A DNA stretch of 64,000 bases from Candidatus Thorarchaeota archaeon (GCA_963726195.1 CAVSBO010000005.1:32001-96000), one strand, 5' to 3'; numbered from the stretch's first letter, positions 61,238 through 63,192 are shown. Program-made: numbers and translations. The notes: generated by a model from the letters alone, not told the origin.

Positions 61238-63192
61238 ATGGAGGCGGTTCTGATGACATTGAAGAGCGAGCAAGTGTCCAAACTCGCCAATGTTTTCGGA
61301 GACCGGCTCGTTACTGCCAAGCATGAGATGATTATCCATTCTCAGGATGTAGGTAGTCTGCCAAAGCAAGTCGGCTGGCTCATGAACACCACGCCGGACG
61401 CGATCGCTCAGCCTCAATCCCCCGAGGACATTCAGTTTCTCTATGAGTTCGCTCGGTCTCAGAAGGTCCCGCTTGTTCCTAGAGGTGCAGGGACCTCGGG
61501 ATACGGAGGTGCGATACCCCGCAAGGGCGGCATCGTTGTCGACATGCGCCGAATGGATAGAGTTGTGAACGTGGACAAGGAGAACCTGACGGTCACCGTA
61601 GAGCCGGGCATATCGTGGGTCAACTTGCAGTTTGAGCTGAATCGTCAGGGCTTGGATTTGCGATGCTATCCGTCCTCGGGTATATCGGCCACCGTGGGCG
61701 GCTGGGTCGCTCAAGGCGGCGACGGTATTGGCTCTCTGAAATATGGTAAGATTAACAACAACGTCACTGAGCTTGAGGTTGTTCTGCCTGACGGGCGGAT
61801 TGTTCGAACTAAGGATACAGATCTCTTCTGCGACACAGAGGGGATACTCGGAATCATCAGCAAGGTCACTTTGAAAGTCAAAGAGCTTACTCCAATTCAT
61901 TCAGTAGTCGCTAGCTTTCCTGAGAACTACCTGATGACTTTCGCAATTGAGAGAATCATATCCGACGGCCCATTGCCTTTCACGATGCGATTCGAGGAGA
62001 GCAAGTATACTGATTTGAAGAAGAAGGTGTGGGAATCCGAGAATCCTTTCCCGTTCCCTGTACATCACTGTGTCTTACTTGTTGCCTACGAAGGAGCCGA
62101 AGACGAGATTCAGGAAGGTCTCGAAGTCGTGAGGCGAGTAGCCGAAGAAATGAAGGGCACAGTCTACGATGACTGGGTCGCAGAGCACGAATGGGAAGAC
62201 CGCTTCTACCCGATGAAGATCAAGAAGATGGGCCCAACCCTTGTTGTCGGGCAGGCTTTTGCCCCAATCGAGAGCCTCGAAGGCATACTAGATGATTTTC
62301 AGTTCGAGCAGGCATCTGCAAAGGCCGGTATTGATGGTTACGTGACCTCAAAATCAGGGGTCACGATCATGGGATATTTCCTTGAGGATGAACGTCGTCA
62401 CTTCTTCATGCTATCTTGGTCCCAGAGCTTCGTGATATTCAAGATCGCTCAACGTCATGGCGGGCATCCCCACTCGACAGGGATCTGGTTCGCCAACTAT
62501 GCGCCAGTGTACTTTGGTACCCGCCGCTTGGCAAGAATTCGAGCGGCCAAGCTGGAGTCGACCCTCACGAGATATCTAACCCGGGCAAGGTGTTTGCGTA
62601 CTGGCTTCCTCTCATACTAAGGGTTGGCAAGTACTTCATGTGGCTCGGTTTCGACCTTTTCAGAAACGGGTTCGGCAGGATTGCACCCATTGTTCTGAGA
62701 TGGCTGCAGAATCTGCCGCCTATCAAGTGGCTCCTTAGATGGGGTCGGGCATACAGTCCTTGGCCGGTACAGTACGGACTTGGCTGCTGCATGGTTGAAG
62801 GTGCAGCTGCGGTCGCGTCTCGCTGGGATCTCGAGCGATTCGGGATGCTGCCTCTGTTTGGTCCTAGGCAGTGCGATGTGCTCTGGGTTTCCGGTTCGCT
62901 GACTAAGAAGATGGTACCACGTCTTCGCCGCATATACGAACAAATGCCTGATCCGAAGTTCGTCATATCATTTGGTCAATGTGCTGCAAGTGGCGGAATG
63001 TTCTGGGATGGATACTCATTGGTGTCGCCGCCTGACAAGGTGGTTCCGGTAGATGTCTACATACCAGGTTGTCCCCCCAAGCCAGCGGACTTCGTTCGGG
63101 CTCACCTGATTCTCGAAAACAAGATTCGTGCAGGAACGACCTATTGGCAGCGGAGATACGAGAGTCAGGACGCTATGGGTTTCGTAAAGTGA
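61238..63192 (+). CDS. GlcD/D-lactate dehydrogenase-type FAD oxidoreductase fused to a NuoB-like [4Fe-4S] domain (about 651 aa); one base missing at about 62551
   Basis: PRGAGTSGYGG, ATVGG, EG.LGII; terminal DPHEISNPGK motif is in the same open frame as GLGCCMVE, PRQCDVL, GQCAASGG and YIPGCPP. Confidence 0.8.

Follow-up and report, generated by a model that had tools for sequence, protein, structure and literature searches.

A NuoB subunit joined to a Dld-like flavoprotein in Thorarchaeia: a candidate redox head for a complex-I-like ion pump

The question raised by this locus is whether a flavoprotein of the GlcD/Dld type and the NuoB subunit of complex I are made as a single protein and, if so, what such a protein would do. 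The window analysed is a stretch of 64,000 nucleotides from a Candidatus Thorarchaeota archaeon (GCA_963726195.1, CAVSBO010000005.1:32001-96000), in which the candidate fusion gene occupies positions 61,238 to 63,192. An earlier interpretation of the same DNA, referred to here as the sequence-only reading, saw in it a 'new electron-input module'. The relatives of complex I share a conserved core (NuoBCDHI and antiporter subunits) to which exchangeable heads are attached (NuoEFG, FpoF and ferredoxin adaptors among them). For the many 'headless' 11-subunit forms found in anaerobes, the electron donor is a long-standing open question.

The gene carries both a GlcD/Dld-like flavin adenine dinucleotide (FAD) domain and a complete NuoB domain. 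In the window it is divided between two plus-strand open reading frames (ORFs) that lie one frame apart. Pfam places FAD_binding_4 (E 2e-42) and the beginning of FAD-oxidase_C in ORF 61238-62620, which also includes the segment GGHPHSTG, and Oxidored_q6/NuoB (E 1e-25) in ORF 62416-63192. Translation of the stop-free frame 62383-63192 gives, in order, VDPHEISNPGK, a linker, WGRAYSPWP, GLGCCMVE, FGQC and PGCPP. The change of frame lies 5' of NPGK. Since a single frame spans NPGK through NuoB, the fusion does not depend on the frameshift, as had been argued from the sequence. The linker is amphipathic, as first described, and about 45 amino acids (aa) long where about 50 had been estimated. The true start of the gene is likely to be the ATG at 61253 and not 61238, because M-[AT]-L-K opens most homologues.

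A length-relaxed protein search retrieves more than 45 uninterrupted proteins of 646 aa that combine PF01565, PF02913 and PF01058 and are 79-91% identical over their C-terminal half. Because these proteins exist, the juxtaposition of the FAD and NuoB domains is not due to chance. They continue from NPGK into NuoB with no stop, the continuity on which the sequence-only reading depended. Nearly all are labelled Thorarchaeota. The fusion proteins are already present in public databases, where the NCBI name is just 'NuoB'.

The window copy differs from these proteins by a break in frame. Across this region the intact homologues read IRAAKL-x-x-DP-x-EISNPGK. When the window is aligned at the nucleotide level with three congeneric genomes (G116, G124 and G155), all of which carry the fusion gene intact, it is one base short at about 62558, with GAG-TCGAC against GAGTTCGAC in G116. 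The assembly containing the window (G000; 19 contigs, 2.9 Mb) appears to be rich in such indels. When ORFs from 200 kb of G116 were compared with it, 16 of 114 (about 14%) were frame-split in it, against one of 150 (under 1%) in the reciprocal control. The nuoD gene and a MenA-like gene are split likewise, at G000:C5:99462-99475 and window 52018-52175 respectively. As breaks of the same kind run throughout the genome and are not confined to the fusion gene, the frameshift is most likely an assembly indel. It follows that frameshift or pseudogene calls in this assembly need read support. A programmed frameshift or a genuinely split gene was also considered and rejected: in the relatives the gene runs through without interruption, and the break amounts to a simple deletion of 1 nt in a break-rich assembly. 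A true pseudogene, together with a decayed nuoD, in a lineage that is losing the complex is highly improbable. The occurrence of two frame breaks in one operon (fusion and nuoD) and of a third in the MenA-like gene would agree with such decay, but the genome-wide frequency of splits does not single out these genes. Moreover, each break is one indel within coding sequence that is otherwise 88-94% conserved, with no stops and no further decay, and all three congeners are intact.

The distribution of the fusion was determined in 301 Asgard genomes from across the phylum, comprising 76 of the Thorarchaeia family to which the window belongs (f1) and about 225 others. Residues 1-645 are matched without a stop in about 50 of the 76, representing 12 genera of the family (g1-3, g6-10, g12 and g14-16), and the full-length fusion is absent from the approximately 225 genomes outside it. 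Among the best 150 matches to 1.84 billion protein representatives, only one 50%-identity cluster is fused; independent fusions of weak similarity may occur further down the ranking. Matches in the ESM Atlas are generic FAD-oxidase clusters only, and all 120 FAD relatives of near length among the matches listed carry generic names alone. In 28 fused homologues the FAD-binding loops, H402, H405 and H407 of HGGHPH, and C512, C513, C577 and C607 are invariant. To judge from these alignments, the fusion is real and under selection, and it appears to be restricted to a single Thorarchaeia family.

As first proposed, the fusion holds a complete NuoB domain of the N2 type, with WGRAYSPWP, GLGCC, GQC and GCPP all present. 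An intact homologue scores 171.9 bits with TIGR01957 (cut-off 142.7) and 178.8 bits with NF005012 (cut-off 116), and the window ORF scores 90.3 bits with PF01058 (cut-off 27). The best solved match is Nqo6 of T. thermophilus, with which the C-terminal 150 aa align end to end (E 1e-42). GLGCC, GQC and GCPP fall on the Nqo6 ligand motifs and all four Cys of cluster N2 are matched. With scores of 149 bits for Nqo6, 112 for MbsJ and 97 for MbhJ, the domain is of true complex-I type.

The sequence-only reading stated that no nuoA, nuoC or nuoD is adjacent. This proved to be incorrect: their apparent lack arises because the window stops (at G000:C5:96000) 724 bp before a nuo operon, which begins at C5:96724. 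The order of this operon is nuoA-J-K-C-D-H-I-N-L-M-M. It includes four antiporter-like genes, one of them encoding a 741-aa NuoL, and a NuoI of the standard two-cluster type. Neither nuoB nor nuoEFG is found within it, and no NuoF-type domain (PF01512) is found in the genome, which is 88.9% complete. The possibility that the genome's nuo operon lacks its own nuoB, also raised in the sequence-only reading, is borne out more widely. Three other PF01058 genes exist and each lies beside a [NiFe]-hydrogenase large subunit, while a tblastn search of the genome with the NuoB domain returns only the domain itself. Apart from the operon's nuoD, the genome has no PF00346 match.

The downstream operon contains no separate nuoB, and the fusion therefore serves as the NuoB of that complex. 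The overlooked operon therefore strengthens the central idea of the sequence-only reading, since the fusion must then be that complex's NuoB. The gene order is conserved: the fusion, a gene for a 155-aa membrane protein and nuoA to nuoM follow one another in every related locus with enough flank. The 155-aa protein has tblastn matches in all related loci (30-87% identity) and no match in Pfam or NCBIfam. The 12 genera that carry the fusion also have an orthologous NuoD (at least 74% identity). It was not found in the fusion-less genera g4, g5, g11 and g13, which have only a distant Mbh-like complex with genuine hydrogenase motifs. A mutual exclusion of Nuo-like and Mbh-like complexes was considered and rejected, as several genomes hold both. 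The protein thus resembles NuoB/Nqo6/PSST in its four N2 Cys, its end-to-end alignment and its position at the head of a nuo operon without another nuoB, and differs in having a 450-aa flavoprotein and an amphipathic tail in place of a short N-terminus.

One further ORF should be mentioned here. A hydrophobic ORF of 124 aa lies on the opposite strand between the 155-aa gene and nuoA (window 63715-64000, continuing to L007:3716-4090). If real, it breaks co-transcription of the fusion and the nuo genes in this genus.

The partner NuoD is itself unusual. Its best solved match is MbsL (E 8e-57), with Nqo4 close behind. In the motif ERLCMLE, Cys and Met stand where Nqo4 has Asp and Tyr87, and ER[LMI]CM[LM]E, with Met for the quinone-binding Tyr, is found in all 24 fused-type Thorarchaeial loci with coverage. 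The His at the position of Nqo4 His38 (GPQHVSAHG) is retained. Of the hydrogenase motifs RxCGxC and DPCxxC a single Cys is left, and the C-terminus reads SLDPYPGWWD; in the Mbh-like complexes of g4 and g13 both CGIC and DPCMSC are present. With the Tyr and the Ni-binding motifs gone, NuoD qualifies neither as a hydrogenase nor as a canonical quinone reductase. The loss of the quinone Tyr and the lack of NuoEFG distinguish the complex from canonical complex I. The membrane-bound sulfane-sulfur reductase (MBS) of Pyrococcus furiosus (6U8Y) is similar: of the Cys in the N-terminal hydrogenase motif, MbsL likewise keeps just the first, and it has no quinone Tyr. It differs in that the Thorarchaeial complex has NuoA, NuoJ, NuoK and NuoH of complex-I type and a long NuoL, its NuoB is nearer to Nqo6 than to MbsJ, and the C-terminal Cys is lost from its NuoD (SLDPYPG).

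The flavoprotein half passes the Pfam cut-offs of both PF01565 and PF02913 and thus belongs to the VAO/PCMH superfamily of FAD-linked oxidases. Among solved structures, LctD (7QH2) and mouse LDHD (8JDB) are nearest to it, with profile E values of about 1e-54. The odd active-site segment GGHPHSTG noted earlier is confirmed, and the positions of the metal triad are altered. In place of the metal site the subfamily carries the motif GG-x-P-[YH]-S-T-G-[IL]-W. The sole remnant of the 2-hydroxyacid site is a His or Tyr aligned with the His of EHG.

The linker has no 19-residue window at transmembrane hydrophobicity and is homologous to the C-terminal tail of unfused relatives (P0051, Borrarchaeum and other stand-alone members). 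The FAD proteins nearest to the flavoprotein half (37-40% identity) are joined to Fer4 and CCG domains or to an NrfD membrane subunit, and this type of flavoprotein is thus habitually tied to membrane electron-transfer modules. These features define an uncharacterised FAD-linked oxidase subfamily with a membrane tail, no metal site and repeated joining to CCG, NrfD or NuoB. The Dld of A. fulgidus may belong to it. Two public proteins can be noted in addition: P0054 carries an NrfD membrane domain N-terminal to an FAD domain of this subfamily, and P0129 (533 aa) has two Oxidored_q6 stretches.

Dehydrogenases that combine FAD and CCG proteins are familiar, for example the two-gene D-lactate dehydrogenase of Desulfovibrio and GlcDEF of E. 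coli. The locus follows this Dld-HdrD/GlcD-GlcF type in possessing FAD_binding_4 and FAD-oxidase_C next to a gene with Fer4 and two CCG domains. It departs from it in lacking the metal His and Glu, in its low GlcD score (TIGR00387, 137-144 bits against a cut-off of 567.9), in its tail and in the fusion to NuoB. The CCG protein, whose best family matches in NCBIfam are thiol:fumarate reductase TfrB, GlpC and HdrB-type proteins, had been suggested as a partner and located at 52594-53823 (it extends to 54033). Its conservation beside the fusion in nearly all related loci agrees with this suggestion; in G124 and G155 the two genes are about 200 bp apart. At least eight further FAD_binding_4 genes in the genome are each paired with a CCG gene and are not linked to nuo genes, forming an expanded Dld-HdrD-like family of the kind reported for Sifarchaeia and Jordarchaeia.

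Upstream of the CCG gene, MenA-like, polyprenyl-synthase and geranylgeranyl-reductase-like (GGR-like) genes are found in conserved order across related loci. The genome has three UbiA genes, of which the MenA-like gene is one. The GGR-like gene is probably also cut by a frame split, as its relative is 398 aa long. As no Men or futalosine pathway was detected, the block 48979-54033 hints at an unrecognised prenylated membrane carrier in Thorarchaeia.

Unfused forms of the flavoprotein are also available for comparison. In genus g13 a CCG gene is followed by a 499-aa protein consisting of the FAD domain and tail, which ends exactly where NuoB would start; no orthologous nuo operon was found there. 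Two species of Borrarchaeum (loci L024/L025 of Candidatus Borrarchaeum weybense and L073 of B. yapensis) have an operon of FAD, CCG, amine-oxidase-like, MenA-like, GGR and polyprenyl-synthase genes, all unfused, about 2 kb downstream of nuoL-M-N and on the same strand. Their FAD gene encodes 527 aa with a longer hydrophobic tail. The nuo operon upstream comprises nuoABCDHIJK and antiporter genes, and its NuoD (ERQCLPD, SLDYWP) is MBS-like. In genomes of the Borrarchaeum family (G041, G031, G050 and G058), matches to the NuoB region read through one TAG or TAA, which may be the boundary of an upstream gene or perhaps the stop-codon recoding reported for these lineages.

Such arrangements raise the possibility of simple tethering with no direct electron transfer, in which the FAD-CCG pair would be an ordinary membrane enzyme acting on a pool of lipid carrier and the NuoB fusion would only place it beside the pump, much as in a supercomplex, or in which the pair would make or modify the prenylated carrier encoded next door. 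In its favour, FAD with tail, CCG, MenA-like, polyprenyl-synthase and GGR genes cluster without a nuo operon in g13 and form one operon in Borrarchaeum; the amphipathic tail is also carried by stand-alone members, and the additional FAD-CCG pairs are not linked to nuo genes. However, the fusion is the operon's only NuoB and is intact across 12 genera, which is hard to explain by co-localisation alone, and fusions of biosynthetic enzymes to core respiratory subunits are not known. We consider either form of tethering improbable.

The best explanation as a whole, to which we assign a probability of about 0.6, is that the fusion is the NuoB of a headless pump and that the flavoprotein and the CCG protein are an extra redox head, with electron input favoured. 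The gene encodes the subunit that carries cluster N2 in a complex-I-like, NuoEFG-less ion pump of Thorarchaeia. A Dld/LctD-like FAD-dependent dehydrogenase stands in for the N-terminus of NuoB, connected by the amphipathic tail, which is expected to lie on the membrane surface. With the divergently encoded HdrD/GlcF-like CCG protein it would form an additional redox head, exchanging electrons between an organic substrate and either the iron-sulfur chain of the complex or its lipid-carrier site. In the input direction, which is our best guess, electrons would pass from substrate to FAD, iron-sulfur clusters, N2 and finally a prenylated carrier made by the products of the neighbouring MenA-like, polyprenyl-synthase and GGR genes. 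The sequences establish the fusion and its conservation, the operon context, the intact N2 ligands, the retained CCG and isoprenoid neighbours and the altered sites of the FAD domain and NuoD; we infer the docking, the FAD-N2 electron transfer, the direction of flow, the substrate and the acceptor.

This explanation draws on the intact fusion, its place as the sole NuoB of the operon, its co-occurrence with NuoD, the complex-I type of its NuoB domain, the retention of the CCG gene, the electron-transfer modules joined to its FAD relatives, the unfused precedent in Borrarchaeum and the failure to detect an NADH module. The interpretation given in the sequence-only reading is accordingly upheld for the fusion, the N2-type NuoB, the FAD segment and the CCG partner and is abandoned for the absence of nuoA/C/D; the proposed 'new electron-input module' is plausible on these data.

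Several observations weigh against this explanation. We take the two His of HxGDGNxH (His-x6-His) and the Glu of GEHGxG to be metal ligands of D-2-hydroxyacid dehydrogenases; in profile alignments with LctD and LDHD both His positions are occupied by other residues and the Glu falls in a deletion. In complex I structures the N-terminus of NuoB lies near the membrane and NuoH, away from the side at NuoI where electrons usually enter, and a direct path from FAD to N2 is therefore not obvious. An AlphaFold2 single-chain model built from the 28 fused homologues gave a predicted local distance difference test score (pLDDT) of 59, below 50 for NuoB, and a predicted template-modelling score (pTM) of 0.55, and provided no inter-domain geometry. 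The extra antiporter-like subunit would suit a low-potential donor (ferredoxin) better than a substrate at about -190 mV. NuoD, as in MbsL, has lost the quinone-binding Tyr (here to Met) and kept one hydrogenase-type Cys. Normal menaquinone is doubtful as the acceptor because neither a Men nor a futalosine pathway for the head group could be detected (MqnA/D and MenD missing and MenB below cut-off in a genome that is 89% complete). Finally, g13 keeps the FAD protein with its tail, the CCG gene and the isoprenoid genes without a nuo operon, and the FAD-CCG unit would thus be able to work without the pump.

Some of these points suit electron output instead. Ferredoxin would then be oxidised at NuoI and electrons would leave through N2, possibly with a captive lipid carrier, and reach a soluble organic or disulfide acceptor by way of the CCG protein and the FAD domain. 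The enzyme would be an ion-pumping ferredoxin:X oxidoreductase comparable to the Fpo-like/HdrD system of Methanomassiliicoccales. We judge this unlikely overall, if nearly as compatible as the favoured input. It would account for the absence of NuoEFG and of any NuoF alongside a standard two-cluster NuoI, for the large redox span that four antiporter-like subunits suggest, for the TfrB, GlpC and HdrB-type affinities of the CCG protein and for a NuoD without the quinone Tyr. Passages of PMC9723677 on related Asgard lineages regard the organisms as fermentative with no known terminal oxidase, and the Fpo-like/HdrD system offers a precedent in the literature. On the other side, FAD-linked oxidases of this superfamily are usually dehydrogenases, and the sequence evidence fits input equally well.

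The comparison with known systems helps to place the proposed head. The Methanomassiliicoccales Fpo-like complex with HdrD, a proposed ferredoxin:heterodisulfide oxidoreductase, also combines a headless 11-subunit relative of complex I with an HdrD-like CCG protein. Its association is inferred and is not a gene fusion, no flavoprotein is involved and the acceptor is CoM-S-S-CoB. NuoEFG, FpoF and NdhS/V/O with ferredoxin are likewise modular redox heads on a core of NuoBCDHI and antiporter subunits, but they are separate subunits on the NuoI/NuoG side and none is of the VAO/GlcD type or fused to NuoB.

The fusion thus suggests that electrons may enter a complex-I-like pump, or leave it, by a route not yet described. 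Here the genome itself names a partner for a headless complex, namely a flavoprotein welded to NuoB, together with an HdrD-like protein and lipid-carrier genes. It is possible, if somewhat less likely than not, that this represents an unrecognised class of energy-converting enzyme, a complex-I-type pump in which NuoB and a Dld-like flavoprotein form one covalent chain, accompanied by an HdrD-like partner. Such an enzyme would directly link the oxidation or reduction of an organic metabolite to ion translocation, with no NADH, F420 or free ferredoxin in between; a novel prenylated carrier might take part. This provides a testable hypothesis for Asgard energy conservation and has a bearing on how the metabolism of the archaeal ancestor of eukaryotes is modelled.

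Literature searches returned no published description of a NuoB-flavoprotein fusion in Thorarchaeota or other Asgard archaea. Passages of Sun et al. 2021 (PMC9723677) describe, for Sifarchaeia and Jordarchaeia, Dld-HdrD pairs in multiple copies as well as a complex I without NuoEFG, and parts of Appler et al. (bioRxiv 2024.07.04.601786) present models of Asgard complex-I-like enzymes. The fusion is not mentioned in the searched passages of either.

Table 1. Positions of the fusion gene, its parts and neighbouring features. Coordinates are those of the window except in the last line, where they refer to contigs of the G000 assembly.
Feature	Position	Strand	Basis and remarks
N-terminal flavoprotein half	61238..62557	+	Pfam; alignment to intact 646-aa homologues; profile alignment to LctD and LDHD; includes motif HGGHPHSTGIW
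FAD_binding_4	~61394-61810	+	followed by FAD-oxidase_C cap domain
Single-base deletion (GAG-TCGAC) splitting the fusion gene into two frames	62556..62560	+	nucleotide alignment with G116, G124 and G155
NPGK, terminal motif of the FAD-oxidase C domain, in the NuoB frame	62578..62589	+	
Amphipathic linker, aromatic and basic	62590..62724	+	hydropathy, hydrophobic moment
NuoB domain	62725..63192	+	PF01058, TIGR01957; stop codon 63190-63192
N2 ligands	62785-62790 (tandem Cys); 62983-62985; 63073-63075	+	
Small membrane protein, 155 aa, 3-4 hydrophobic helices	63203..63670	+	directly 3' of the fusion in all related loci
HdrD/GlcF/TfrB-like iron-sulfur protein, Fer4_8 and two CCG	52594..54033	-	Pfam, NCBIfam; divergent from the fusion
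MenA-like UbiA-family prenyltransferase	51483..52593	+	frame-split 51483-52175 / 52018-52593; NCBIfam 1,4-dihydroxy-2-naphthoate polyprenyltransferases
Polyprenyl diphosphate synthase	50262..51344	-	one of two in the genome; conserved synteny
Geranylgeranyl-reductase-like flavoprotein	48979..49803	+	NCBIfam, synteny
Direct repeat, 190 nt, 86% identical	59389..59578	+	copy of 61161-61350 (fusion upstream region and first ~40 codons); island edge
Examples of further FAD-CCG pairs	C3:547377/548630; C3:809798/810960; C4:281558/282874; C4:351805/353288		

The region between the CCG gene and the fusion is variable. In the window it is occupied by an island of about 7.2 kb, which is absent in G124 and G155 and measures about 3 kb in G116. 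The upstream copy of the direct repeat at the island edge encodes a 48-aa fragment that is closer to the N-termini of other genera.

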